A DNA stretch of 24,000 nt from Bacillota bacterium. Its GTDB lineage: Bacteria > Bacillota > Clostridia > Acetivibrionales > DSM-1351. The position numbers and the translations under genes were made by a program. Under the pieces are notes generated by a model. The model saw only the letters and a program-made list of their open reading frames with translations, did no database searches and was not told the origin of the DNA. The stretch's first letter is position 1, and every line of letters starts with the position of its first letter. Positions 60 through 18,972 of this stretch are shown here, one piece after another. The DNA lies in NCBI GenBank assembly GCA_023390335.1, contig JAEWCZ010000073.1, forward strand, positions 55,094 to 79,093, given 5' to 3'.

Positions 60-1838
60 TCATTGATACCACCTCCTCTGAGCTTCAAACATTGTAAAAT
101 ACTGCCCTTTTTGTTTTATTAACTCTTGATGGGTTCCTTGCTCAACAATTCGTCCATCTCCTAATACCATAATTTCATCTGCTAACTTAGTTGAACTTAA
201 TCGGTGACTAATGAATATTGTGGTTTTACCATCCATTAATTTTTCAAATTCATAATAGATCTGACTTTCTGATATAGGATCAAGAGCGGATGTAGGCTCG
301 TCCAGTATTTTTACTGGTGATCTACTTATTAAAGCTCTCGCAATCGCAATACGCTGCCATTGTCCTCCTGATACTTCTTGTCCCGATTCATGAATTTTTC
401 CTAACGGAGTATCTAATCCATTATTAAGCGTAGATATTAATTCATCTATACCTACCTTATTAAAGACATTAAGAATTTCTTCATCCGAATAATCCATCGA
501 AATATCTCCAAGAGCTACGTTTTCCTTTATTGATATGTAGTATTTAGCAAAATCCTGATATACCGTAGTAAATAATGCTTTAAGGTCTGGATGATTGTAT
601 TGTCTAAGCTCCACTCCATTTACATATATATTTCCTTCATAATTCGTATATAAGCCTGTCAATAACTTTGTAATTGTAGTTTTTCCAACACCATTGCTAC
701 CAACAAATGCATAATGTTTTCCCTTCTGCAAGCGAAACGACAATCCATCTAAAATATATTTATCGCTACCTGGATATTTAAAACGAACATTTAAAAATTC
801 CAATGTTTCAAACTTGATAGAATCTTTGCAAGGACACTCTAGAACCTCTTCATTTGTTCCCCAGCTCTGATATTGTTCGAAGTCTCTTAGGTATTCTCTT
901 GTATTAGCTAACGTTTCAACAGACCAAGACATATCCCATCCTATTTGATGTGTAACAGACAGCACGGTTCCAACGATACCCATATACATACCTGCTGATA
1001 TATAACCTGATATAACAGATGGAATTAGTGTAATAGCCACTAAAATAGCTACTAAACTAAGTGCTATAGTTGCACCTTTTGTTAAAAGCATATATTTCAA
1101 CTGTACTTTTACCCTAATCCTACGTCCCTGATCTTTTATATTGAACCATTGATTACTTAAATTCTGTCCATAACCGAATAATGAACGTTCTTGCATATTA
1201 CTTCTTTCAGTCAAAATATTTTCTAAATAATCTGTACGTCTATTTAACTTCTCAGTATCTTTTCCAATCTGATAGCTTTTTCTTCCCGATTTTATAGAAA
1301 AAGCTATCATCGGTATTGAAAAAAGTACAATCAAAATTGTAGCCCACCATACATGAAAAAGAATAATACTCAAAACTGATATAATATAAACTATGGTTGT
1401 CAGAACATTCATATCTGCACTAAATCCATTGATCAGTACATTCTGAGGATTAGTCGATATTCTTCTAATAATTTCCCATGTTTTATTATCTTCAATGTAT
1501 CGATAATCCATTGCTGCTTGTGTCTTGATTAATTGTGGCTTAAACTGTTCTTCTATTTGAAGTGTTAGCTTTCTTTTTATTAATTCCATAATTGTACCTA
1601 TTGTATTAACAAATAATAATACCAATAGCAATAATATCAACGGTAACCAAATACACTGATAGTCTCGCTTTGCATGTAAAATATCATCAGCCATGTCAAT
1701 AAAATTAGCTGTTGTGATTGTTGTTACCAATGTTGCCATTACTGCTTTTATAATTGTTAATACTATAAAGAGTACAGAATAGAATGGTGATATTTTATAA
1801 ATCATCCCTATTACATTGTACTTTTTATCTTTATTCAT
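60..1838 (-). CDS. ABC transporter, fused permease/ATP-binding protein (MsbA/MdlB-like exporter); no N-terminal C39 peptidase domain
   Basis: 592-aa ORF. The N-terminal half is hydrophobic with multiple TM segments. The C-terminal NBD has Walker A GSNGVGKTT, ABC signature VSGGQWQRIAIARA, Walker B ILDEPTSALD and H-loop ISHRL. It is the last gene of the co-directional operon. Confidence 0.9.
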   Translation of the reverse strand: MNKDKKYNVIGMIYKISPFYSVLFIVLTIIKAVMATLVTTITTANFIDMADDILHAKRDYQCIWLPLILLLLVLLFVNTIGTIMELIKRKLTLQIEEQFKPQLIKTQAAMDYRYIEDNKTWEIIRRISTNPQNVLINGFSADMNVLTTIVYIISVLSIILFHVWWATILIVLFSIPMIAFSIKSGRKSYQIGKDTEKLNRRTDYLENILTERSNMQERSLFGYGQNLSNQWFNIKDQGRRIRVKVQLKYMLLTKGATIALSLVAILVAITLIPSVISGYISAGMYMGIVGTVLSVTHQIGWDMSWSVETLANTREYLRDFEQYQSWGTNEEVLECPCKDSIKFETLEFLNVRFKYPGSDKYILDGLSFRLQKGKHYAFVGSNGVGKTTITKLLTGLYTNYEGNIYVNGVELRQYNHPDLKALFTTVYQDFAKYYISIKENVALGDISMDYSDEEILNVFNKVGIDELISTLNNGLDTPLGKIHESGQEVSGGQWQRIAIARALISRSPVKILDEPTSALDPISESQIYYEFEKLMDGKTTIFISHRLSSTKLADEIMVLGDGRIVEQGTHQELIKQKGQYFTMFEAQRRWYQ

Positions 1839-1858: not shown

Positions 1859-3118
1859 TTATTGGTAAAGTTCATTAATGTATTGCTCCTCTGTTTTTTG
1901 TTTATAAAGGAGATCCACCTTATCCTTATCAACAATAAAGAACTCACAAGTCATTGGATACATATAATTCTGAACACAAGAAAATGAATAGCTTCCACAA
2001 TTCAATGCTACAATGTAATCTTCTACATTCTGCTGTTCAATTTGGGCATTCCTCTTGATTATCCCAGCGAAAGAAGAAGTTCGATCACCAATCTGTACCG
2101 TAACCATGTCTCTACCATGTCTCTTTATTGGAAGTACATCGTACTCTCTTCCAAAAAAAGGCATTAAAATATTGGTGCCCATATCTGTAATCCACCAGAT
2201 CTCAGAACCGCACTCTTTTTCACATAGAATCTTTCCAATACATATCGCTGCATCATCTACTAAATATCTTCCAGGTTCAAGAATAAGCTTAGGCTGATAT
2301 TTCAATTCTTTTATTATCGGACACATTGCTTCTGCAAAATCATCAATTGTATTTCCAGCGCTCTTCATATGATTCCGACTTCCAAAGCCTCCACCTGGAG
2401 ATATGTAATCTAACTCTATACCTAAATTGTTATACAATTTTTCTGCAAAAGCTACCAATCCCTTTAGAGCTTTTACATGATTTGTTGGAGTGGTGTTCTC
2501 TACTGAAATATGACAGTGCAAACCAGCTAGTCTCACATTAGACATCTTTTTGATTTCCTGACATACAAGATAAGCCTGTCCAGATGCCACATCTACACCT
2601 AATTTACCGCCAGCTTCAATTTTTGAATGCAAATCACTAATATCCGGATTTATTCTAATTCCTATGTCTATGCATCTGTCATGTGCTTTTGCAAGATTGT
2701 TAATACGGATTGCTTCCTCTAATGAATCAACATTCCAATTTATTTTATTCTCCAGCAAATTTTTCATTTCGTCTTCCGTTTTTCCAGGGCTGTTCCACAC
2801 AACATTATTGCTAAGCCCATTCTTCTTTGCCATCTCAAACTCATATGAAGAACATACCTCTGCCGCAATTTGATTTTCCTTTATAATACGTAGGATTCCA
2901 GGAATATAACATGCTTTATATGCAAAATGAATACTACAATTTGGATATCTCTGATAAAAGGCATTTCTGATAGACTCTATATTATTAACTAGCCTCTGTT
3001 TCGAATATATAAACGCAGGACCGTTATAATTTTTTACTAAATCTTCTATACAAATGTTTTCCATATAAAGTTTGTCATCTAAATAATAAACAATTCCATC
3101 GTATATAGAGTTTTGCAT
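1859..3118 (-). CDS. PLP-dependent decarboxylase, Orn/DAP/Arg decarboxylase family (alanine-racemase fold, fold type III)
   Basis: 419-aa ORF with SD AAGGAGGAG upstream of the ATG at 3118. Family-like motifs: FAYKA (PLP-lysine context), GLHCHIS, PGGGFG (phosphate-binding Gly loop), EPGRYLV and a C-terminal NCGSYSFS (GAY-like). Confidence 0.8.
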   Translation of the reverse strand: MQNSIYDGIVYYLDDKLYMENICIEDLVKNYNGPAFIYSKQRLVNNIESIRNAFYQRYPNCSIHFAYKACYIPGILRIIKENQIAAEVCSSYEFEMAKKNGLSNNVVWNSPGKTEDEMKNLLENKINWNVDSLEEAIRINNLAKAHDRCIDIGIRINPDISDLHSKIEAGGKLGVDVASGQAYLVCQEIKKMSNVRLAGLHCHISVENTTPTNHVKALKGLVAFAEKLYNNLGIELDYISPGGGFGSRNHMKSAGNTIDDFAEAMCPIIKELKYQPKLILEPGRYLVDDAAICIGKILCEKECGSEIWWITDMGTNILMPFFGREYDVLPIKRHGRDMVTVQIGDRTSSFAGIIKRNAQIEQQNVEDYIVALNCGSYSFSCVQNYMYPMTCEFFIVDKDKVDLLYKQKTEEQYINELYQ

Positions 3119-3132
3119 TAAACTCCTCCTTA

Positions 3133-3411
3133 TTATTTAACCTCTTTGATGGTACCCAATTCTAACATTCTGATAATAAATGGTTCCACATCCTCATATA
3201 TTTCTTCTTTGGGCGCAGCATAATCTGTACATAATTTTTCAAGAAGCTTGTCAATTTCTAATTCTTGTTTCAGTAGATTAAAAATCTCTTCGCCAACTTC
3301 ATTCAACTCATACATGTCACCTGTTTCAGGATTATATGCCATAGTTGTTTTTCCAATATTTCTAATTAAAATGTTTTGATTAAATTCATATTTTAATTCT
3401 TCGATTTTCAT
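3133..3411 (-). CDS. PqqD-family protein (RiPP recognition element, stand-alone)
   Basis: 92-aa ORF with SD GGAGGG 8 nt upstream. Size and pattern (...YNPETGDMYELNEVGEEIFNLL...) are typical of PqqD/RRE winged-helix proteins. It sits in a radical SAM operon. Confidence 0.7.
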   Translation of the reverse strand: MKIEELKYEFNQNILIRNIGKTTMAYNPETGDMYELNEVGEEIFNLLKQELEIDKLLEKLCTDYAAPKEEIYEDVEPFIIRMLELGTIKEVK

Positions 3412-4177
3412 AATCTTTTCCCTCCAATAATTTACTGATTAATTTCGATACTTGTAATGCTATATCAATATTTTTTCTTGAATCCTCACATTGAAACTGA
3501 TTCACAGCCTCGACAATTTTACAATTTAAAATTCTATAATTAGGACTGCTGTATCTTTTTCCATTTATCTCAATCCCAACTTCCTTTGACCGTATAAAAC
3601 GAATTACTAATTCTTTTCCATTAATAACTCCTTTTAAGTCATCCCCATCTTGCTCTAGCTCAATATCATTGCCTATTTCAATCATCAGCCAGCTTAATAA
3701 ATGAGGAAGCATATGAATTATACTTGATATTAGTTCATTATTAATGGAAAACCATTTAATCTTATAACGTTCATCTTTTTCAATAGAGTAATGCTCAATA
3801 TCAAAATTCCGCTGGCATACAATTGCACATTTTTCGACATTGTACAGTATTTCCCTATATTTTTCTATTTCATCTTCTAAAATACTTAGCGGCTTCTCTA
3901 TGATAATAGCATTCTTATACTCTAAATCATTTATTAATCTTGATATGACTTCATACTTCTTTTCAAGAGACAAACAAATAATTATCATACCATATTTATC
4001 TATTTGCTCTTTGTCCAATGATGTTACAGGATAATAGCATAATCCAAACTCCTCGGCCAATTTCCTTGAAGCTCCAACTACTCCAATTCCTGAAACATCA
4101 ATTTCATGTTGTGTCCAAAGTAATGGTTCAACGTACCTTCTGGCAGCAATTCCTCCGCCTATCACTAAGATTCTCAT
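3386..4177 (-). CDS. NAD(P)-binding oxidoreductase, Gfo/Idh/MocA-like
   Basis: 263-aa ORF. N-terminal Rossmann signature MRILVIGGGIAA plus the EKP motif (IIIEKPLS) characteristic of Gfo/Idh/MocA dehydrogenases. Its start overlaps the stop of the upstream gene by 4 nt. Confidence 0.6.
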   Translation of the reverse strand: MRILVIGGGIAARRYVEPLLWTQHEIDVSGIGVVGASRKLAEEFGLCYYPVTSLDKEQIDKYGMIIICLSLEKKYEVISRLINDLEYKNAIIIEKPLSILEDEIEKYREILYNVEKCAIVCQRNFDIEHYSIEKDERYKIKWFSINNELISSIIHMLPHLLSWLMIEIGNDIELEQDGDDLKGVINGKELVIRFIRSKEVGIEINGKRYSSPNYRILNCKIVEAVNQFQCEDSRKNIDIALQVSKLISKLLEGKDYENRRIKI

Positions 4178-5457
4178 ATATTAATAAACTCAAAAAGACA
4201 TTTCCTGCTCCATTTTTCAAGGGTATCTGCAGATAAATCTTTCGTTGAAACGATAACCTTATTGGACCAGGTATCCTTTTCGTACCAATATTCATCATCA
4301 AGGATAATTCCATACTTTTCTGGATTTGCATACATATCAATTCCAGGGTAGCATTTTAGTAAGTTAAATGTTACAAGAGTAGGATTTATTCTTTTTACTA
4401 ACTCAACCATAGCCTGAAGATCTTCTTCTGTATCACCAGGATTACCTAAAATGAATGATGCATGAAATTCCATACCATATTTATGTAAAATATCTGTTTT
4501 TACTATTACTTCTTCATTACCAAGATTCTTTCCAATCACCTTAGAAGTTTTTGCATTGGAAGTCTCTACTCCAACAAATACCCTATATGCACCAATCTCT
4601 TTCATAAGTTTAATCTTATAATCATTAATGTCTTTGATTCTAATATTTGAAGTCCATTTAAACTTCAAATTTCTCCTTTTCACCTCATTTGCAAATTGAG
4701 TTAGCCTTTCATCGGAAAATGCAAAGGTATCATCAGAAAAGAAGAAACTCTTAAAACCATAAGATAAAAGTTCTTCAATTTCATCACAAAATCTTTCTAC
4801 TGAGAACAAAGAGAATTTGGCAAATTTGGATTTAATGCAAAAAAGACAATTGCTTGGACATCCTCTGGACGAACGAACTATTGTTTCAGAATCACGTCGT
4901 AAATATTTACTAATATCATATATTTCTCTATCCGGCATAGGTAAACTGTCTAATGGATAGTCGTTAAACTTTCGTTCTGTTATATTAAACTCACCATCTT
5001 TTGAAGTTCTGTATCCAATATTATTAATATTCTCAAAGGAACCCTTACCTTGTCTTGCCTCAAGAATTTTTAACAATGCATAGTCATCATCATGGCGAAT
5101 AACATAATCAAGTTCTGGATTACGTTCCAATACTTTTTCTGGAACGAAAGTCGCAATCTCACCTCTCATTGCAATTCCTACTTGTTCACCATATATTTCT
5201 CTCACCAATGGAATGATTTTTACTGCATTACTATGTGTTCTAGGATCATCATCAATAACTACAATATCTGGGCAATACTGACGTAACATCCCCTTCAATG
5301 TTTCAATATCTATATTATCAATTTTCATATCAATCAGATCTACTTCATGACCATTTTCTTTTAGCACTGCTGACCATATATAAACGTCTAGTGATGGTAA
5401 AATCAAATATTCTTTCACTCTATTCGGATATGGAGGTACAACAAATAGAACCTTCAC
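4174..5457 (-). CDS. B12-binding-domain radical SAM protein (class B rSAM; methyltransferase or other chemistry)
   Basis: 427-aa ORF. GTG start at 5457 with SD GAAGGGG about 9 nt upstream. The N-terminal ~130 aa look like a cobalamin-binding Rossmann domain (MKVLFVVPP..., DIVVIDDD). Radical SAM motif RGCPSNCLFC (CxxxCxxC). Confidence 0.85.
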   Translation of the reverse strand: MKVLFVVPPYPNRVKEYLILPSLDVYIWSAVLKENGHEVDLIDMKIDNIDIETLKGMLRQYCPDIVVIDDDPRTHSNAVKIIPLVREIYGEQVGIAMRGEIATFVPEKVLERNPELDYVIRHDDDYALLKILEARQGKGSFENINNIGYRTSKDGEFNITERKFNDYPLDSLPMPDREIYDISKYLRRDSETIVRSSRGCPSNCLFCIKSKFAKFSLFSVERFCDEIEELLSYGFKSFFFSDDTFAFSDERLTQFANEVKRRNLKFKWTSNIRIKDINDYKIKLMKEIGAYRVFVGVETSNAKTSKVIGKNLGNEEVIVKTDILHKYGMEFHASFILGNPGDTEEDLQAMVELVKRINPTLVTFNLLKCYPGIDMYANPEKYGIILDDEYWYEKDTWSNKVIVSTKDLSADTLEKWSRKCLFEFINI

Positions 5458-6319
5458 AATTATCTACCCCTTCCCCAATTATCTCTTTTAATGATGTTTC
5501 AAGCATTTTCCCTATTATGTCATTTCTTAAATTGCATCTTCCTACTTCTCCACTAGGTTCAATGCTCAGTGTATACTGGCTGTGACAACAATTCATTTCA
5601 AAGTAACGCTCATATACAGAATCATTAATTTCCCCGGATTCTTTTAATCTTCGAAGTGTAGGTAACAGCCTCATATCATGAAACAGTGTTTGGACTCCTT
5701 CTGATTTCATCGCCATTTTTTCAAAGAATCTGATATACTCTTCTTCTTTTTCCAATTCTAGAAGATATCCATCTTTTCTTTCCCTAAGAAAACTAATGAA
5801 TTCTATATTTAATTCTTCACCCAAATGATAAATATCTTCTAAACAAGATACATTGTTATCATTTACCGTAACACTCATTTCCGTATGTATTCCGTGATCC
5901 AAAAGTAATTTAATCGCATTTAATGCCTTAACATAGGCACCTTTATGGTTCCGATTCATATCATGCATTTCGGATTCACTATGGTCAATGCTTATGCACA
6001 CCTTTTGTATGTGGTTTTTCTTCAATATTGCTATCTTTCCTTCATCTATTAAGTAACCATTTGTCATTAATATCTGAACCATACCCTTTTTGTTGGCATA
6101 TGTAGACACTTTATCAAATAATTCACTTAATAATGGTTCTCCAAATGTATAATAGATTATAAACAGACCTTCTTCAAACAATGTATCTATTATTCTGTAA
6201 TAATCTTCTTCCACTAGTTTGTCCTTTTTTTTGGTAACAAAGCAATGCTTACAAGCCATGTTACATCTATATGATAAACCTAAATGCAATACATTTATCA
6301 TTCTTATTTTTCTCTCCAT
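5420..6319 (-). CDS. Radical SAM peptide-modifying enzyme with C-terminal auxiliary-cluster (twitch/partial SPASM) region
   Basis: 299-aa ORF. CxxxCxxC at YRCNMACKHCF. C-terminal Cys-rich region CCHSQYTLSIEPSGEVGRC (GxxxxC) followed by CEGSICC. The alternative start at 6301 (MINVLHL) has a better SD (GGAGAG). Confidence 0.85.
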   Translation of the reverse strand: MERKIRMINVLHLGLSYRCNMACKHCFVTKKKDKLVEEDYYRIIDTLFEEGLFIIYYTFGEPLLSELFDKVSTYANKKGMVQILMTNGYLIDEGKIAILKKNHIQKVCISIDHSESEMHDMNRNHKGAYVKALNAIKLLLDHGIHTEMSVTVNDNNVSCLEDIYHLGEELNIEFISFLRERKDGYLLELEKEEEYIRFFEKMAMKSEGVQTLFHDMRLLPTLRRLKESGEINDSVYERYFEMNCCHSQYTLSIEPSGEVGRCNLRNDIIGKMLETSLKEIIGEGVDNCEGSICCTSISE

Positions 6320-6326
6320 TGTTTCC

Positions 6327-6361
6327 CGAAAAAGTCACTGGTAAATCCAGTGACTTTTTCG
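6327..6361 (-). terminator. Intrinsic terminator/attenuator-like hairpin between precursor ORF and modifying enzymes
   Basis: Perfect 15-bp inverted repeat cgaaaaagtcactgg / ccagtgactttttcg with a 5-nt loop. On the minus-strand RNA, the GC-rich core stem GUCACUGG/CCAGUGAC is followed by UUUUUCG. Confidence 0.6.
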
Positions 6362-6401: not shown

Positions 6402-6458
6402 TTAGCAGTCAGCATAGATTACTCTAACACGTACAACAGGTTTATTCCATTGTTTCAT
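6402..6458 (-). CDS. Candidate precursor peptide, 18 aa: MKQWNKPVVRVRVIYADC
   Basis: Hand translation of the minus strand: GGAGGGG-ATAAAT-ATG AAA CAA TGG AAT AAA CCT GTT GTA CGT GTT AGA GTA ATC TAT GCT GAC TGC TAA. Strong SD at ideal spacing. It lies directly upstream of the rSAM/PqqD genes and is followed by a hairpin. It is too short for the ORF track. Confidence 0.55.
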   Translation of the reverse strand: MKQWNKPVVRVRVIYADC

Positions 6459-6589
6459 ATTTATCCCCTCCGTTCTATTTTATTTGGAGACAAAAATACA
6501 AAAACACTTCTGACTCCCATTTATAAAATACCTTTTAAATATGTAAGGTAATTTTATCTTTTTTATCACCGACCTCTTATATCAGTTTT

Positions 6590-7186
6590 GATTAAGAACA
6601 TTTAGTAATAGTTTTTTGGAAAAGCGAACCAGGTGTCAAAGAGAAGATATTTGGCGGATAAACGCTTAACAGAATCAAGAATTTTCAACATTACTTCTGT
6701 CGAATTTGCTTACTCTGGGTATTATCCGCAGGACATATAAGTTTCTTTTCATATCTGCTGCTCAAAAGTGAAAATTCAACTGGCAGAAATGTGGTGCCAT
6801 CAGACCAGCCAACTGTAAGCATTTTAAAACCTTTTATAAACTTATGGGTTGTATGGTCAAAAAACTCTTGAAAGCAGCTCTACTTTTTTACTTCTTCCTC
6901 GATTATACAAAGAATCATCAACACTCAGCACACTTGCTCTATCATCTGATCTTAGTTTGTTTATTTCATGTATAATTGCTGTAACAAGTAATAATAGCAA
7001 CCGAGACCAATTGTAACTACTAGAGTTGAGAAACCTGTAAGCCGTATTTTTCTTAAAAGATATATCTCCAGAACTCATATCCAAAGTCCTGTACAGGTTT
7101 TTGCCAGAGAAAATCAACCCAAATAATTGCTTCAGTAATTCTACGGGTTGAATGCCACTTTCTTTATAAAAATTGGAGCTCTCCAT
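6590..7186 (-). pseudogene. IS4/IS1634-like DDE transposase remnant, frameshifted and 3'-truncated
   Basis: The 109-aa ORF 6857..7186 ends at a TGA inside a T-run. The reading continues in another frame (FDHTTHKFIKGFKMLTVGWSDGTTFLPVEFSLLSS...), then stops again and resumes (MLKILDSVKRLSAKYLLFDTWFAFP) before ending near 6600. No catalytic C-terminal half is present. Confidence 0.7.
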
Positions 7187-8119
7187 ATGCTTATATATTG
7201 TAAACGTTGAAAAGAAATTATCAATTTTGGATTAAATAGCATTTTCATTGTTTGATTTATTTGTTATAATTGCATTCATAAATTCTGATCTTTTCATTGG
7301 TATTAGTTGTTTCTGGACAATTCTATCATCCAAAAATCTAGGAGTTTTTATATAATTATTAACATACCTGTATTAATTTATCAAAGAGCAAACCCATTTT
7401 TTAGGTGTAAAAATTGAGTTTATTAGTAATATATTACCTTTTTTGTTTATAAAATGCAACATGCTTTATTTACAAAATGCAACCTTTTTTTGATTGAGTC
7501 AATTAACTATAGGGAATTGAAAAACAGATATCACCCTAGGATTATGCAGTGTCTCCAGAGTCACGCTCTTGACAACAAGCATCTCCCATATGATTTTGTC
7601 AGCTAGGTGCAGCATCCTTCATAAGCGGGTATTCAAAGCAAGACAGCTGCCACTTTTTTAGTATATCATATGGATCCCTCTTATTGTAAAGGAGTTCGCT
7701 TCGCCGTTCTTTACTCTCCATTTGTTTTAAAAACTGCTTAAACATCTCAGACTATTATGCAGTGCAGTTTTATGACCTTTTTCAAGTATCGTTATATTAC
7801 TATTCCATGAGTTGAAATATCTATTGCTATTTGTCTTTTTTAGTTCCTCGATTATTTCATACTGGAATGTTTAAAGAAACAGCCAATAACAGCCGAAGAA
7901 CTTGTATTTGAAAAGATACAGGTAAGAAAACCAAAACTAATACCATAGAAAATAAATATTATAGTTTACCTTTTAGAACTGAATGAGTCCCCCTAGTTTG
8001 ACTATTACTTGTTATAAGTATATAATTAAATTATTGTAATTTTTTGACTAGATGCTCAACAACATCAATGAAAATGAGGTGATTATATAAACACACCTAA
8101 AACAACCGCTATTCTTCCC

Positions 8120-9754: not shown

Positions 9755-10148
9755 TTAAAACCCTGTGCAGAGAGAGTCATCACTCATAACAGCACCCATT
9801 GCCACACCGATTCCCTTTAAAACACCGCCTAGCTTTTCAAAACGAGTGCCTGCACTATCTGCCGTATTTGCCGACTCCTTAACTTCCCTGTCAAACTCAC
9901 TGACTTTGTTCTCCGCTTCATCAAAGCCGCTTCCCGTGGTATTCAGAGCCTCGTCGTTGTTTGCCAGCTCCTTTTACCATATTGTTAAGGTCTGCATTTG
10001 CATTGTTAAGCTGAATTTGCCATGCCCGAGCTCGCTTATCATTCTCGCCAAAGGAGGTGGCTGCATTCAGCAATGCTTTTTCAAGAGTAGATACCTTTTC
10101 CTTCTGAGTATCTATCTCCTTGTTAAGCACCTGATTTCTTGCAGTGTT
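9755..10148 (-). pseudogene. Phage tail tape measure protein fragment (N-proximal part), frameshifted near 9970 and truncated at both ends
   Basis: The minus strand reads ...KEIDTQKEKVSTLEKALLNAATSFGENDKRARAWQIQLNNANADLNNMVK. After a 1-nt frame change it reads ELANNDEALNTTGSGFDEAENKVSEFDREVKESANTADSAGTRFEKLGGVLKGIGVAMGAVM...*. This coiled-coil plus GIGVAMG pattern is typical of Firmicute phage TMPs. Confidence 0.65.
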
Positions 10149-10703
10149 ATATTCCTTTGCTAAAATGCCATACATAGCACTGTCACATATCCCTTGATTA
10201 TTCCAGTCTGCTTCCCTAAGTGTCCCCTCGTACTTTAAACCACATTTCACCATTACTTTTCCAGAATTAGGATTTATTGGGTCATGGCGTGATTCAATGC
10301 GATTTACTCCTACTTCTTCAAAAAGAAATTCAACTAATGCGGCTAAAGCTTCAGAAGTAATTCCTTGCTTCCACCATCTTTTTCCTATGCAATACCCAAT
10401 ATGTACCATTTTTACAACATCGTCTTTTCGAACAACGGCAATACTGCCAATTGGTTCATCGCCGTTTTCTTTTAATATAATAGCCCATTGGTAATAGTCA
10501 TCTTTAGCATATTGATTGGTCCAATCAGACAACACATTACGGCTGATTTCAACCGATTTATGAAATGGCCACATTAAGTATTTTGTAACTTCTGAGTCGT
10601 TTGCCCAGTTATTAAACATTGCATCAGCATCTTCTATGACAAACCTACGAAGTACCAATCTATTCGTCTCAAGCCTTTTTGTACCTAAATGTTTCATCTG
10701 CAC
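9921..10703 (-). CDS. GNAT family N-acetyltransferase (RimJ/RimL-like), open frame running on into tape-measure-derived sequence
   Basis: SD GGAGGTG upstream of the ATG at 10703. The first ~185 aa are GNAT-like (RLETNRLVLRRFVIEDADAMFNNWANDSEVTKYLMWP; IGYCIGKRWWKQGITSEA). The last ~75 aa are TMP-like coiled coil. Confidence 0.8.
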   Translation of the reverse strand: MQMKHLGTKRLETNRLVLRRFVIEDADAMFNNWANDSEVTKYLMWPFHKSVEISRNVLSDWTNQYAKDDYYQWAIILKENGDEPIGSIAVVRKDDVVKMVHIGYCIGKRWWKQGITSEALAALVEFLFEEVGVNRIESRHDPINPNSGKVMVKCGLKYEGTLREADWNNQGICDSAMYGILAKEYNTARNQVLNKEIDTQKEKVSTLEKALLNAATSFGENDKRARAWQIQLNNANADLNNMVKGAGKQRRGSEYHGKRL

Positions 10704-15031: not shown

Positions 15032-16801
15032 TCAATAATTAAGCAGTATTTGTATAATTCTCTTAATATTCTGTAAGGTTAAGTTATATTTTCTCCACCG
15101 ATTTCTTAACATATTAAAAGTAGTTTCATCAAGTTCTCCAGTACTAGCTCGATCCACTTCAATCATTATGTCAGAAATTATAAAGAGATACTGATCTATT
15201 GGTATATTTTCTGGTAAAACATTTGCAAAACTCCTGAGCTTATTAGCAGTAATCATTACTTGTTTTCTTGCAGGTATAGATTTTTTTTGAATACCTTCAT
15301 TAAGGACCTGTGGTGTTTTTCTATAAACGGCTTCTCTATTTGTAAGTACGTCCTTGCTTTCATCCAAATTATTGTTTACGGATTGTCTGTTCTTATATCC
15401 TGTCATTTTTTCAGTAATATCGTTTTCAGGTACCATAACCATCTGAGATGTTACCTTCTCACAAGTTTTTATAAAAATTGTCTGTCCTTCTTCCGATCTG
15501 AGTTTTATTGTATAAACTGAAATCCCTTTTGCTATAGGTTTGTTAAGTCTCTTCTCTATTACTGTCAACAAATTAAAAGGATGAGTAATAATTCTATCTC
15601 CCACTTTGGCATCTTTTAGTTTACTTTTAAAGCCTGAATTTGAAATGTCAAACGGTATTAATTGAGTAAACGAATATACCTCTTTACTAGGGTCTACAGG
15701 TGAATACTGTACCAATTTCTTTATAAATTGATAGTCTTGAACATCAAACCATTTCGCTGACAGCCATTCAGTTCCATGGAGCATACCAAGTAGACCACCA
15801 ACCATAGATGCTAGGGTATCTGTGTCGGCATTGTTCAAATTAGCTGCTTCTACCAATCCAATGTATGGATTGGAAGCATATTTTGATGCTAAATATATTG
15901 AAGCTACTGCAGTCACTGTTCCAGAGCCATTTACTTTTGGGTCGAAGCATCCAAGCTTCACCAAAACATCATTTCCCATATCCAGTGCTCCTTGATTAAG
16001 GCCATTCTTTGCTATACTTAGTAAATTTATAGCTTCAGTTACAACACCGTCCCATAAATCTATATATTGCGATCCTATTACCACATCGGCATTTTCTATC
16101 CAATCCTCAAGTTTTTGAATTCTCGGAAATTGTGCCCATTTTTCATGATTCTCTATCAACATATTTACAAGCTCGCCATAACCTAATATTCCTTTATAAA
16201 CCGAAAGACATACCAAGGCATAGGCATATAAAGTTGCACCAAGCAATGCTCTTGGATGCCCATGTGTATATATACCGTTCAAGACAACTTGATGCATAAT
16301 CTCTTCAACCATATCTTCATTTCTAAATACATGAGGGAGTATCCTCATTGCTACTCCGTTACCTCCTGCATCGAAATATTTCCTGACGTCACTTATATTC
16401 TCAGTTTCTAATTTCCAAGGCTTTCTACCTCTTTTCCAAACCTCTGCTGCTCTCTTGGTAGCTCCTCCACCACCTCTTTCATATGAAAGCCAAGCTGGAA
16501 TTTCGTATTTTGTAAAATAACGATTCCAATTAGCCCCATAACGCAAACTTCTTGCAGTCGCAATTATCAATTGAGTATCATCACTATACTCTCCAGGATT
16601 AATTTCTTCTTCATGGTTCCAAAATTTACCACCACATCGTCTTTTCCAACTTTGAAAAAGCTCCACATTTGTAGGTTTAGAATTGCCTATCTTCTTACTA
16701 TTTTGTTCATTTGGCCAGCCCAAAGCATCTCCGACAGCCACACCTAAAAGAGCCCCCTGATATTTCTCAATTCTAAGATTGTCCACTTTGCACTCCAGCA
16801 T
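15032..16801 (-). CDS. ADP-ribosylglycohydrolase (ARH/DraG fold) with ~220-aa C-terminal extension of unknown function; candidate antitoxin
   Basis: N-terminal ARH signature YQGALLGVAVGDALGWPNE and C-terminal ARH signature NNADTDTLASMVGGLLGMLHG. The preferred start is ATG 16801 (MLECKV), with SD GGAGGTG 4-5 nt upstream. The track start at 16843 lacks an SD. Confidence 0.85.
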   Translation of the reverse strand: MLECKVDNLRIEKYQGALLGVAVGDALGWPNEQNSKKIGNSKPTNVELFQSWKRRCGGKFWNHEEEINPGEYSDDTQLIIATARSLRYGANWNRYFTKYEIPAWLSYERGGGGATKRAAEVWKRGRKPWKLETENISDVRKYFDAGGNGVAMRILPHVFRNEDMVEEIMHQVVLNGIYTHGHPRALLGATLYAYALVCLSVYKGILGYGELVNMLIENHEKWAQFPRIQKLEDWIENADVVIGSQYIDLWDGVVTEAINLLSIAKNGLNQGALDMGNDVLVKLGCFDPKVNGSGTVTAVASIYLASKYASNPYIGLVEAANLNNADTDTLASMVGGLLGMLHGTEWLSAKWFDVQDYQFIKKLVQYSPVDPSKEVYSFTQLIPFDISNSGFKSKLKDAKVGDRIITHPFNLLTVIEKRLNKPIAKGISVYTIKLRSEEGQTIFIKTCEKVTSQMVMVPENDITEKMTGYKNRQSVNNNLDESKDVLTNREAVYRKTPQVLNEGIQKKSIPARKQVMITANKLRSFANVLPENIPIDQYLFIISDIMIEVDRASTGELDETTFNMLRNRWRKYNLTLQNIKRIIQILLNY

Positions 16802-17495
16802 TACACACCTCCATAAACTTATCTTCCTGAGGAATGATTCCATTTCTTATTTTTTCACTACAAGAACTACTAAACAAATCTGGTGCAATAATTATATCAA
16901 TTTCCGGAATGTTTTTTAAGCAAGACCACCTAGTTTTCTCTCTGTGCGCTTGTTCTTTGGTCTCAACTGCCACTCCAATAATATCTTTTCTAGAAATATT
17001 CTTATAGACTAACACTTCTGCCTGATCATCTGTAGGGCAACAGGGTAACATTTTTTCCGTTCTTGTACGTGGCCATTTTCCATTCACGCTATGTGCAAAC
17101 ATTCCTTTAAAGGCCTCGGCTCCTTTTTCTATATATGCTCCACTTCTAAACGCAGCATTCGTAAAACAGAACTCCGTACTATCGAGCAATATTATTTCCG
17201 GTTTTATAAACAATACAACCCAATCTTTAAAAAGTGGTTCCTTATCTTTTACATTTTTAAAGTACCAATAATTAGGATACTGAACAGAACAGTTTATATA
17301 TTCCCTTTTTCCATCCAATCGTAACTTATCATTGGCATCATATATACTTTCATCTAAAAAGTCAACTGCTATAACTCCAGATTCACTACCTAATATATGT
17401 AAAGCTTTACTAGACCTTGTAAAATGGCACAGTCTTATAATACCTCTATCTTTTATTTCTTGTTCAATCATATCCCAAAATTTATCCTTCTTCAA
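16773..17495 (-). CDS. DarT-like ADP-ribosyltransferase (DUF4433-type); candidate toxin/effector
   Basis: 240-aa ORF. It carries the motif triad recalled from DarT: LCHFT (His, compare IYHITH), QYPNYWYF (Tyr, compare VPFYF) and DDQAEVLVYKNISRKDIIGV (catalytic Glu, compare KQAEFLVY...EEIGV). The TTG start at 17495 overlaps the helicase stop (TTGA). An alternative ATG lies at 17471. Confidence 0.65.
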   Translation of the reverse strand: MKKDKFWDMIEQEIKDRGIIRLCHFTRSSKALHILGSESGVIAVDFLDESIYDANDKLRLDGKREYINCSVQYPNYWYFKNVKDKEPLFKDWVVLFIKPEIILLDSTEFCFTNAAFRSGAYIEKGAEAFKGMFAHSVNGKWPRTRTEKMLPCCPTDDQAEVLVYKNISRKDIIGVAVETKEQAHREKTRWSCLKNIPEIDIIIAPDLFSSSCSEKIRNGIIPQEDKFMEVCNAGVQSGQS

Positions 17496-18907
17496 ATTAT
17501 TTTTGTTTTATGGTAAAGCGTTTCATCTTCAGGAATCAACTCAGTTGGTTCACCCGCATACGTTAATATCAAAGTACGTTTTGCCCTTGTAACAGCAACA
17601 TATACAAGTTTAACTTCCTCACTCATGGCTTCATCTCTATCCTCTAAAGCTAATATTTTTTCTTTATCTGGAAGCCTTTCGGAATTGAAGTATGGTAATA
17701 TTACCGCGTAAAACTCAAGTCCTTTCGCCGAATGGTAAGTACCTACAGATATTCCTGGTGAACTATCCCACCGGCTCATTTCTCCATTAAGCTCTTGACA
17801 TTTCAAGCCTTTTCTTAGGAGCTTTAACTTAATATCATTGACTGCTCCCCTATCTCTGACAAGAATTGCAACTGTTTGTGTTTTTGATATTGTTTCAGCG
17901 TTATTTATGATCCAATTAGTTTCTTTTGTTGCATCATCAAATTCAGCCAATACTGGAAGTGGAGCTGATGCAGTAGGTGATTTAGGTGTGACAAGATCAA
18001 CATTACTTTTAAAACAAGGGAGTTTAGAAATAGCAATTGCGAGTTCAGCAATTTCCTTACTATTTCTAAAATTCTGATCAAATTTCCAAATTTCATCTTT
18101 AGTAACATTGATACCTGCGTCCCTCCATGAAATCCTTCCTCCATATATCTGCTGTGCAACATCCCCAAAGAAAGTAAGACTTCCATCCTCAGGAATAGCT
18201 AAAACCAAAGATTGCAGCATAATCGGAGATAAATCCTGCCCCTCATCAATGATTATATGTTTATACATTCTATTAGTTTTATCTTTTCTAAATTCTTCCT
18301 TTGCAAAACGTGCTATATCATCCCAATCATATTTAAAACCCTTCTGTGCTCTAATTTCAAGATATCTTTCGTATACTCTAAAAAAGTATTCTCGCCTGTC
18401 TCTGGTAATTCTAGTTCCTGCCCTACCTATTCTTTCAGCGCCTATGTAATCTTGAAGCACAGTTATACCCATCTTCTCAATCCAGTTAATTTCTTCATTA
18501 AATACTTCAGGAGCCCTAGATAAAGTTGAGTTTTTCCCTATTTCCAAAATAACCTCAGCCATAGCCTCCTTAATTATGGATAGTTTTAAATCGGTGTCAA
18601 CAATATCATTCCATCCTATCATATCTCTATATGATAAATATCCTCGTGCAAATTTATGATAATTTTGAACAACAACCTTTTGTAGTGTCTTATCAGAAAT
18701 CGAATTCAAATATGTAACAAGAGATTTGTTGAAAGTTACTAACAAAACCTTTTGGTCACCTAAAGTATTTAACTTGGCTAAATAGGATGCCCTATGAATT
18801 GCAAGTGTAGTTTTTCCGCTTCCAGCTGTTCCAAGGACTATATAATGCCCTTTTTCAGGTAAGCATAATACTTCTTTCTGTTTTCCTTCCGGGGTAGGTA
18901 ATGACAT
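17492..18907 (-). CDS. SF1 UvrD/Rep-like helicase (short form, ~470 aa)
   Basis: Walker A GTAGSGKTT, motif II IIIDEGQDL, motif III FFGDVAQQIY, motif VI YVAVTRAKRTLIL. The preferred start is ATG 18907 (MSLPTP), with SD GGAAGGAGAGG. The track start at 18925 is a TTG inside that SD. Confidence 0.85.
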   Translation of the reverse strand: MSLPTPEGKQKEVLCLPEKGHYIVLGTAGSGKTTLAIHRASYLAKLNTLGDQKVLLVTFNKSLVTYLNSISDKTLQKVVVQNYHKFARGYLSYRDMIGWNDIVDTDLKLSIIKEAMAEVILEIGKNSTLSRAPEVFNEEINWIEKMGITVLQDYIGAERIGRAGTRITRDRREYFFRVYERYLEIRAQKGFKYDWDDIARFAKEEFRKDKTNRMYKHIIIDEGQDLSPIMLQSLVLAIPEDGSLTFFGDVAQQIYGGRISWRDAGINVTKDEIWKFDQNFRNSKEIAELAIAISKLPCFKSNVDLVTPKSPTASAPLPVLAEFDDATKETNWIINNAETISKTQTVAILVRDRGAVNDIKLKLLRKGLKCQELNGEMSRWDSSPGISVGTYHSAKGLEFYAVILPYFNSERLPDKEKILALEDRDEAMSEEVKLVYVAVTRAKRTLILTYAGEPTELIPEDETLYHKTKII

Positions 18908-18972
18908 TAAAACCTCTCCTTCCAAAATACACCACTAATTTTAGTTTAAATTGTAAAAATTTCTCATATACT

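Follow-up and report, generated by a model that had tools for sequence, protein, structure and literature searches.

The window analysed here is a stretch of 24,000 nucleotides on contig JAEWCZ010000073.1 of a Bacillota bacterium, and this report concerns an open reading frame (ORF) of only 18 codons in it, together with the 6.4-kb operon that contains this ORF and the genes of two radical S-adenosylmethionine (rSAM) enzymes. Our best reading is that both belong to an undescribed family of ribosomally produced, post-translationally modified peptides (RiPPs) made by rSAM enzymes, in which the logic of a Trojan-horse inhibitor of aminoacyl-tRNA synthetases (aaRS) is known and the enzyme set is new. 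The features of the locus are the following.

6402..6458, minus strand: ORF of the 18-aa precursor peptide, with the translation MKQWNKPVVRVRVIYADC followed by a stop codon; ATG at 6458
6465..6471, minus strand: Shine-Dalgarno sequence GGAGGGG, with a 6-nt spacer to the ATG of the peptide ORF, from sequence reading
6327..6361, minus strand: stem-loop of 15 bp (A5-stem-U5) in the gap that separates the peptide ORF from the rSAM gene, from folding
5420..6319, minus strand: rSAM enzyme with a twitch-like (truncated SPASM) C-terminal domain (PF04055)
4174..5457, minus strand: B12-binding rSAM enzyme (PF02310 and PF04055), its start overlapping the rSAM gene by 38 nt
3386..4177, minus strand: NAD(P) oxidoreductase of the Gfo/Idh/MocA fold (PF01408)
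3133..3411, minus strand: stand-alone PqqD-family RiPP recognition element, a peptide chaperone (PF05402, 9e-14)
1859..3118, minus strand: LysA-like type III decarboxylase dependent on pyridoxal phosphate (PLP) (PF02784)
60..1838, minus strand: ATP-binding cassette (ABC) exporter, a fused permease and ATPase (PF00005 and PF00664)

An earlier note on this DNA, made from the sequence alone, had described the peptide ORF as an 18-aa frame with a consensus Shine-Dalgarno sequence 6 nt before its ATG, and translation and sequence reading bear this out. The ORF is also unannotated, as had been said, since the public gene calls for the same contig hold no gene at its position. It shares its strand with the rSAM gene; the reported distance of 83 nt between the two was measured as 82 nt to the longest-ORF start at 6319, or 100 nt if the enzyme starts at M7 (6301), which is the likely true start because the family alignment begins there and other gene calls (293 aa) start there. 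The strong hairpin after the ORF (6361-6327) was found again, with a folding energy of −26 kcal/mol and z = −5.6 (0 of 200 shuffled sequences fold as well), and is not listed by a simple terminator scan. It is probably a partial terminator or an mRNA-stabilising element that sets the ratio of precursor to enzyme. A frameshifted remnant of a DDE transposase (window 6694-7231, minus strand) adjoins the peptide ORF on its upstream side and occupies the site at which the related loci L016 and L018 have a gene for a PepE-like S51 peptidase. A remnant of such a peptidase was sought in the window, and only the transposase remnant was found.

Conservation of the peptide across related clusters

An 18-codon ORF with a Shine-Dalgarno sequence proves little alone, so that its status as a gene rests on comparative evidence. 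The rSAM family comprises about 64 clusters at 90% identity in a word search; among 1.84 billion proteins, about 45 representatives (at 50% identity) exceed a score of roughly 220 bits. We fetched 32 loci, 31 around members of this family and one (L031), an mcc plasmid of Escherichia coli, for comparison; the 31 family loci and the window make up 25 distinct clusters. Scans of genome contigs and of metagenome contigs yielded 4 and 10 loci, respectively, and most of the context comes from contigs encoding family members. The hosts of the related clusters are metagenome-assembled genomes of anaerobic, Firmicutes-type bacteria.

A conserved short ORF at the equivalent position in related clusters, which the earlier note had named as the thing to look for, is indeed present. 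Homologous ORFs of 18-22 aa were found in 22 of the 25 distinct clusters with the pattern (M)KK-W-x-K-P-[VTI]-[VIL]-R-[VAT]-R-x-x-[Y/F/A/S]-x-X-C-stop, accompanied by genes for PqqD, rSAM and B12-rSAM proteins, which is the gene content generally expected of a RiPP cluster. The W, the K, the P, the second Arg and the C-terminal Cys are invariant, the distance from W to Cys is 15 residues throughout, and no homologue has Gly between W and K. The importance that had been given to the C-terminal Cys is thus upheld, the stop codon following directly after this residue at every homologue. The clusters from which no peptide was recovered are L005 (cut upstream), L003 (its contig ends just after the enzymes) and L030 (an atypical ORF); L004, which is a partial match, gave no peptide either. 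In L030, an ORF of 39 aa (MKIDVLTDEEKSEIIKYGQERLRVRAVHVEQCFLHRNLS; L030:8825-8944) precedes the rSAM gene and has R-x-R-V-R and a Cys, with no W-x-K-P and with the Cys not at the C-terminus; it may represent a diverged class of precursor, or a gene that has decayed.

Pairwise differences between the homologous ORFs amount to 565, 301 and 891 at codon positions 1, 2 and 3, respectively, Arg codons alternate between AGA and CGN (CGT or CGC), and TAA, TAG and TGA are each found directly after the Cys codon. Nucleotide identity is 63% in the ORF versus 27-33% in the flanks, and an AGGAGG-type Shine-Dalgarno sequence stands at the same distance before every homologous ORF. Relocation has also left the sequence of the ORF intact: in L002 it lies 0.9 kb upstream, in L011 it lies 2.9 kb upstream, and in L024 it is found on the downstream side of the enzymes. 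A stable hairpin lies 3′ of the peptide ORF in 20 of the 20 loci examined, with no shared hairpin sequence. A chance open frame in an intergenic leader, in which the RNA hairpin and not the peptide is the conserved element, would suit an ORF of only 18 codons that gene callers leave uncalled and that adjoins a conserved hairpin, but it is extremely improbable: amino acids are kept while codons vary (the AGA/CGN alternation, the third-position excess and the three stop codons), every locus has its Shine-Dalgarno sequence, the ORF has moved relative to the enzymes without losing its sequence, the hairpins have nothing in common, and a search of the window and seven loci for T-box and other Rfam elements returned only the tRNA of L028. 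Together, these patterns of substitution indicate that the ORF is a translated gene, and we are nearly certain that it is the real precursor of the rSAM operon, the comparison of related clusters agreeing here with the assignment of the earlier note to the adjacent rSAM and PqqD genes.

We propose that the peptide is laid out as an N-terminal recognition part (KxW-x-K-P..R-x-R) and a C-terminal D-C, the latter being the site of modification and specificity. Two sites singled out earlier fare less well under this layout. W4-N5-K6, suggested as a crosslink site, lies in the invariant W-x-K-P and is more simply read as a PqqD recognition element, and Y15-A16-D17, suggested as an aromatic-X-X site, begins with a position that varies among Y, F, A and S. 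The likeness to a short scaffold in the style of PqqA or MftA is retained, and nothing points to removal of a leader: the core encodes no protease, and the exporter is devoid of a peptidase domain.

The penultimate residue and the cluster synthetases

In all 14 clusters that carry an aaRS gene, the penultimate residue of the peptide (X) is the amino acid for which this aaRS is specific. Four amino acids are represented, as listed below by peptide ending.

...HC (L001, L008, L020, L022): HisRS above the hisS cutoff, with two copies in L001, L008 and L022
...NC (L007, L009, L011, L013, L026): AsnRS, 46-342 nt upstream of the peptide
...DC (L014, L027, L028): AspRS, 422-437 bits (cutoff 353)
...DC (L027, L032): a conserved, divergent AspRS-like paralog
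...DC (L028): a tRNA-Asp(GTC) gene beside AspRS
...AAC (L006): AlaRS

The aaRS identities come from curated models that passed their cutoffs; that of AsnRS was established by score in L013 and L026 (570-580 bits; cutoff 414) and by homology grouping in L007, L009 and L011. When the ending of the peptide was predicted blindly from gene content at six new loci, five predictions were right (L026, L027, L028, L029, L032), and the sixth locus had no canonical peptide. On the rSAM tree the residue types are interspersed, with His arising twice, Asn two or three times, and Ala inside the His clade, which gives about seven independent associations of residue and aaRS. Permutation of the labels yields 1/630 for seven groups and 1/1.26 million for the 14 clusters. 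D17 of the window peptide, named in the earlier note as part of an aromatic-X-X site, is the informative residue through this co-variation, which the sequence of the window alone could not reveal.

The AsnRS genes linked to clusters form a lineage of their own (68-76% identical to each other), and because the genes beyond AsnRS differ between loci, AsnRS travels with the cluster and not with the chromosome. An AsnRS gene near the His-type cluster L008 was considered as a counter-example and rejected; it lies 1.8 kb off, beyond another gene, and is 45-48% identical to the cluster lineage. The bona fide cluster aaRS keep their anticodon-binding domains and pass equivalog cutoffs, and by these sequence features they fit working, presumably resistant enzymes better than repurposed ligases.

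The AspRS-like paralogs (388-389 aa) are encoded inside the operon (L027:6953-8122 and L032:6575-7741). They share 49% identity with each other and only 26% with the bona fide AspRS of L027, retain the arginines of motifs 2 and 3, and may be biosynthetic ligases rather than immunity genes. In L028, a ...ADC cluster, the tRNA-Asp(GTC) gene (L028:13011-13085, plus strand) lies between the last biosynthetic gene and AspRS; it could be functional, either in a tRNA-dependent step or in immunity, or it could mark an integration site. No AspRS or tRNA gene was found when both were sought in the window.

Core enzymes and neighbouring genes

All related clusters share a core made up of a twitch-type rSAM enzyme, a B12-rSAM enzyme, a Gfo/Idh/MocA oxidoreductase and PqqD. 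When scanned against NCBIfam and Pfam, none of the operon proteins and none of the 20-22-aa peptide homologues pointed to a named system, and no NCBIfam model reached its cutoff for the core proteins. Because the core enzymes match no curated family, the C-terminal Cys is likely to undergo new radical chemistry, irrespective of the function of the product.

The rSAM enzyme shows the Cys pattern CX3CX2C, C245-X11-G-X4-C262 and a C-terminal CC. The CX2CX5CX3C block is missing, which makes its C-terminal domain twitch-like and sets aside the SPASM label given to it earlier. Its nearest relatives, at the level of the common core only, are the thioether maturases SkfB, StsB, AlbA and PapB as well as WgkB, AhbD/NirJ and the nucleoside decarboxylase BlsE, and the nearest solved structure is that of SkfB. 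For the B12-rSAM enzyme the best sub-threshold models are HpnJ, ApyD, BchE and PhpK, and the nearest proteins in the PDB are AprD4 and OxsB; its nearest characterised relatives are HpnJ, ApyD, AprD4 and OxsB, and not PoyC-type enzymes, on which the earlier note had modelled a putative C-methylation of Val or Ile. ApyD, also a B12-rSAM enzyme, Cβ-methylates the penultimate residue of its own precursor (PMC10635010).

The oxidoreductase has invariant GGGxAA and EKP motifs. A sequence search against the PDB was uninformative for this protein and a fold search was used instead; the top Foldseek matches of its AlphaFold2 model (pLDDT 91) were inositol, UDP-GlcNAc, TDP-sugar and aminoglycoside sugar dehydrogenases. 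The oxidoreductase probably acts on the peptide, because it is fused to PqqD in some clusters (L022 and L024). PqqD itself has sub-threshold matches to lasso-PqqD, WgkC and PqqD models. The membrane domain of the exporter begins at residue 25, with no N-terminal peptidase domain before it, and the protein scores below cutoff on MsbA and bacteriocin-exporter models. The decarboxylase reaches 210 bits on the lysA model (cutoff 298) and is homologous to the N-terminal domain of MccE in the canonical mcc operon (tblastn; 25% identity, E = 3e-10). In microcin C, the N-terminal domain of MccE decarboxylates the SAM-derived 3-amino-3-carboxypropyl group, and immunity is conferred by MccF and GNATs (PMC12250964).

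The accessory genes differ with the type of peptide. Asp-type clusters take two mutually exclusive forms, one with AspRS (L014, L027, L028) and one with the decarboxylase (the window, L016, L018, L029); L032 has the AspRS-like paralog only and no decarboxylase. In His-type clusters, a NodU-like carbamoyltransferase is encoded along with an S66 (MccF/LdcA-type) peptidase. S66 peptidases occur in L022 and L030, and PepE-like S51 peptidases in L016, L018, L027 and L032. Asn-type clusters encode, in addition, a Sel1/TPR protein together with an HPr-like protein, some of them also an enzyme resembling enzyme I of the phosphotransferase system (PTS). HPr-family proteins were seen in L007 (11972-13767), L011, L026 and L030, in some of these with the PTS enzyme I-like, phosphoenolpyruvate-utilising enzyme, and such genes imply a phosphoryl-transfer step on the product. 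Several clusters encode a TrpD-fold protein (glycosyl transferase family 3), and further accessory genes across clusters encode a nonribosomal peptide synthetase (NRPS) adenylation and peptidyl carrier protein (A-PCP) and a PaaK-like ligase.

A RimL/RimJ-like GNAT acetyltransferase is encoded in the window at 9921-10703 (minus strand), 3.5 kb upstream of the peptide and on the same strand. GNATs of this type confer immunity to processed microcin C and to trifolitoxin. By analogy, the gene is a candidate for an immunity role in the window cluster, which has no AspRS and in which immunity is perhaps provided by the exporter alone or by the GNAT.

Genes for an agr-like or LytTR response regulator and a histidine kinase lie upstream of the L007, L018, L020, L029 and L030 clusters, in L018 together with AgrB and a 50-aa ORF, which suggests that production is under quorum-sensing control. 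A RelA/SpoT homologue of about 480 aa (HD_4/HD/RelA_SpoT/TGS) is encoded directly upstream of the peptide in L001, L006, L008 and L022, the last of which has an extra TGS fragment after the cluster, and also at L032:13170-14615, so that it neighbours clusters of two different rSAM clades. It may connect the clusters with the stringent response that uncharged tRNA provokes, or it may be a marker of an insertion site. Farther off in the window (15032-18925, minus strand), the genes of a 603-aa protein with a DraG-like ADP-ribosylhydrolase N-domain, an unmatched 240-aa ORF and a UvrD/GajB-like helicase may form a defence island unrelated to the peptide cluster.

The predicted product and its place among known systems

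With moderate confidence we favour a model in which the family makes Trojan-horse aaRS inhibitors, using a logic like that of microcin C and the tiarins with unrelated rSAM enzymes; we are considerably more confident of one part of it, that the C-terminal X-Cys is the functional end of the peptide. PqqD would bind the invariant N-terminal W-x-K-P/R-x-R and present the C-terminus to the rSAM enzyme, the B12-rSAM enzyme and the oxidoreductase, which would convert the C-terminal Cys, probably with X, into a non-hydrolysable group. The modified Cys joined to X would mimic an aminoacyl-adenylate. The ABC pump would export the whole modified peptide with its leader uncleaved, because there is no leader peptidase and the exporter has no peptidase domain. 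Competitors would import the product as a peptide, and trimming by peptidases of their own would release the X-Cys* warhead. This would block the synthetase cognate to X, which for the window (X = Asp) would be AspRS. Cluster aaRS copies and MccF-like (S66) or PepE-like (S51) peptidases would protect the producer. In the window subtype, which has no AspRS, the MccE-like PLP decarboxylase may decarboxylate an amino-acid-like appendage, comparable to the aminopropylation of microcin C.

Several points weigh against this model. Everything in it beyond gene content we infer, and a single Cys is a small platform for a mimic of AMP unless something large is added to it. The clusters are related, so that fewer independent observations stand behind the match than a count of 14 of 14 suggests. 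Two clusters, L024 (...LNC) and L002 (...MFC), have no matching aaRS in the DNA examined, the window has neither AspRS nor an obvious immunity gene, and four of the eight Asp-type clusters have the decarboxylase instead of AspRS. Some clusters have two aaRS copies, the divergent paralog lies inside the biosynthetic operon of L027 and L032, and the tRNA-Asp of L028 also fits a biosynthetic, tRNA-dependent role.

That last role belongs to a different account, in which the operon is a scaffold pathway following the logic of pyrroloquinoline quinone (PQQ), mycofactocin and pearlin. The peptide would be a carrier whose C-terminal residues become a small molecule cut off by a peptidase, while the aaRS genes and the tRNA-Asp would be biosynthetic, as a supply of aminoacyl-tRNA or as adenylating ligases, and not a matter of immunity. 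Taken jointly, these two proposals are in our estimate rather unlikely. The family shares with PQQ and mycofactocin a very short precursor (about 20-30 aa in those pathways), a stand-alone PqqD-family chaperone and an rSAM enzyme with an auxiliary-cluster domain that acts near the C-terminus. W-x-K-P is also found at the N-terminus of PqqA. The S51 or S66 peptidases could release a C-terminal fragment, the AspRS-like paralog with its motif 2 and 3 arginines sits inside the L027 and L032 operons, tRNA-Asp adjoins AspRS in L028, and the NRPS A-PCP, PaaK-like ligase, TrpD-like, carbamoyltransferase and PTS-like genes suggest a stepwise assembly of a small molecule. A carrier, however, leaves the match between the encoded penultimate residue and the aaRS unexplained, and bona fide aaRS that keep their anticodon-binding domains and pass equivalog cutoffs are what is expected of working synthetases. 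Exporters and quorum-sensing regulators suit a secreted antibiotic better than a cofactor, and the window cluster has no peptidase. Nor do the proteins fall into either known pathway. The rSAM enzyme scores 51 bits on the PqqE model TIGR02109 (cutoff 381) and 63 bits on the MftC model TIGR03962 (cutoff 265); the peptide has no E-x3-Y motif, the operon has no PqqB or PqqC, and the peptide homologues (20-22 aa) match no NCBIfam model. The peptide ends in X-Cys where MftA ends in ...GVY, homologues of MftD, MftE and MftF are absent, and exporters and aaRS genes are present here, unlike in PQQ and mycofactocin. The two accounts overlap in part, since the aaRS would remain the target of an X-Cys* antimetabolite set free in this way.

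An ordinary crosslinked rSAM RiPP, serving as a signal or bacteriocin, is a further alternative and corresponds roughly to what the earlier note proposed. Cys18 would form a thioether (NxxC-like, to position −3), W-x-K would be crosslinked as in tryglysin, or both, and the B12-rSAM enzyme would C-methylate the peptide, with aaRS genes that have no functional connection to the target of the product; we regard this combination as unlikely. The nearest solved or curated relatives of the rSAM enzyme are the thioether maturases SkfB, StsB, AlbA and PapB, plus WgkB, and Cys, W and K are invariant. NxxcB joins Cys to residue −3 and tolerates Ala or Asp there, and WgkB crosslinks W-G-K (PMC9389541). 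ApyD provides a B12-rSAM enzyme that methylates a penultimate residue (PMC10635010), and agr-like or LytTR regulators adjoin several clusters. These similarities, however, are all far below family cutoffs; as for sactipeptides, ranthipeptides and NxxC peptides, the rSAM enzyme scores 52-75 bits against cutoffs of 300-850 (StsB, AlbA, PapB, SkfB) and has no full SPASM domain. Position −3 varies (Y, F, A, S), and Gly never stands between W and K. The residue/aaRS match in 14 of 14 clusters, the MccF-, PepE- and MccE-like genes and the enzyme of sugar-dehydrogenase fold are all left unexplained. Set beside thioether and crosslink RiPPs made by rSAM enzymes, the family has its closest rSAM relatives there, an invariant Cys as a possible donor, the W-x-K motif and a PqqD/WgkC-like partner in common (PMC9389541), whereas its acceptor positions are unconserved, and the B12-rSAM enzyme, the sugar-dehydrogenase-fold enzyme and the aaRS genes are absent from those systems. 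In the comparison with triceptides, W-x-K is invariant but lies inside the leader-type motif W-x-K-P, and no maturase model reached its cutoff. By analogy, a tryglysin-type W-x-K crosslink in the peptide is possible, and a thioether or crosslink could also be one step within the Trojan-horse model.

For the chemistry on X-Cys in the Trojan-horse model, three candidates can be named by analogy: a thioether that joins Cys to a carbon close by at a −3 spacing like that of NxxC peptides, an oxidative decarboxylation like that of MftC, and a C-methylation of the penultimate residue like that of ApyD. A fourth candidate, more speculative, is that a sugar- or nucleoside-like unit is attached and remodelled, which is considered because all three core enzymes have sugar- or nucleoside-acting relatives; AprD4 and OxsB rearrange sugars and nucleosides, and the fold of the oxidoreductase is that of dehydrogenases of secondary alcohols in sugars. 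In its full form, which we find very doubtful, the C-terminal Cys would be elaborated by the three core enzymes into an AMP mimic resembling a sugar or nucleoside, giving a ribosomally templated analogue of an aminoacyl-adenylate, X-NH-CH(COO-)-CH2-S-(nucleoside), without an MccB-type adenylyltransferase. Radical addition of the SAM-derived 5′-deoxyadenosyl unit to Cys, followed by remodelling, would be one route to it, and its target could be reprogrammed by one codon (Asp, Asn, His and Ala are seen, and Phe is possible). Albomycin, a Trojan horse, is a seryl-thionucleoside inhibitor of SerRS whose warhead is aminoacyl-NH-CH(COOH)-(thio-sugar nucleoside), and its cluster includes rSAM enzymes, a carbamoyltransferase, a methyltransferase and a resistant SerRS copy. 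It differs in being made without a ribosomal template and in having a siderophore carrier, and a nucleoside-like moiety in the present family is purely hypothetical.

Two ribosomal systems come closer to the Trojan-horse model in their logic. With microcin C and related peptide-nucleotide antibiotics (MccA-F) the family shares a very short ribosomal peptide (7-19 aa) and the lack of leader cleavage, as well as a warhead on the C-terminal residue and a Trojan-horse logic ending in an AspRS inhibitor, both of which are here predicted. A type III PLP decarboxylase, an S66 (MccF-type) peptidase, a GNAT (here a candidate immunity gene) and a dedicated exporter are also common to both (PMC12250964). 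The two differ in that the core here consists of two rSAM enzymes, a Gfo/Idh/MocA oxidoreductase and PqqD, in that the terminal residue is Cys and not the Asn of microcin C, and in that it appears to be the penultimate residue that determines the target, the Asn, His and Ala types included. No MccB/ThiF adenylyltransferase gene was found in the window or in any related cluster, and MccD is also absent.

In the tiarins, the trifolitoxin family, the aaRS of the cluster corresponds to the residue before an invariant modified residue; they are interpreted as programmable Trojan-horse inhibitors, with the aaRS copy as the immunity gene and with experimental proof for ArgRS (10.64898/2025.12.02.691738). 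Tiarins occur mainly in Actinomycetota and Pseudomonadota, and are made by the flavin mononucleotide-dependent dehydrogenases TfxB and TfxC from leader-bearing precursors of 23-65 aa with a conserved Gln; the paper makes no mention of radical SAM, B12 or PqqD (10.64898/2025.12.02.691738). The related clusters have no nitroreductase-type genes, and the peptides have no conserved Gln. The same rule relating residue and aaRS is seen here, which is a functional analogy only and not membership.

Literature searches on W-x-K-P peptides and on combinations of rSAM, B12, PqqD and aaRS genes turned up no account of the family, which the surveys of rSAM RiPPs that were consulted also leave unmentioned. 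An 18-codon gene missed by gene callers carries the key information of a 6.4-kb operon. If the Trojan-horse model is true, the family would be a third enzymatically independent route to peptide-delivered aaRS inhibitors, after microcin C and the tiarins, and its products would be the first such inhibitors to arise through radical SAM chemistry as well as the first to come from anaerobic, gut-type Firmicutes. The penultimate codon would then name the target synthetase and offer a one-codon handle for inhibitor design, a rule that is directly testable and that predicts a Phe/PheRS pair for the ...FC peptides.

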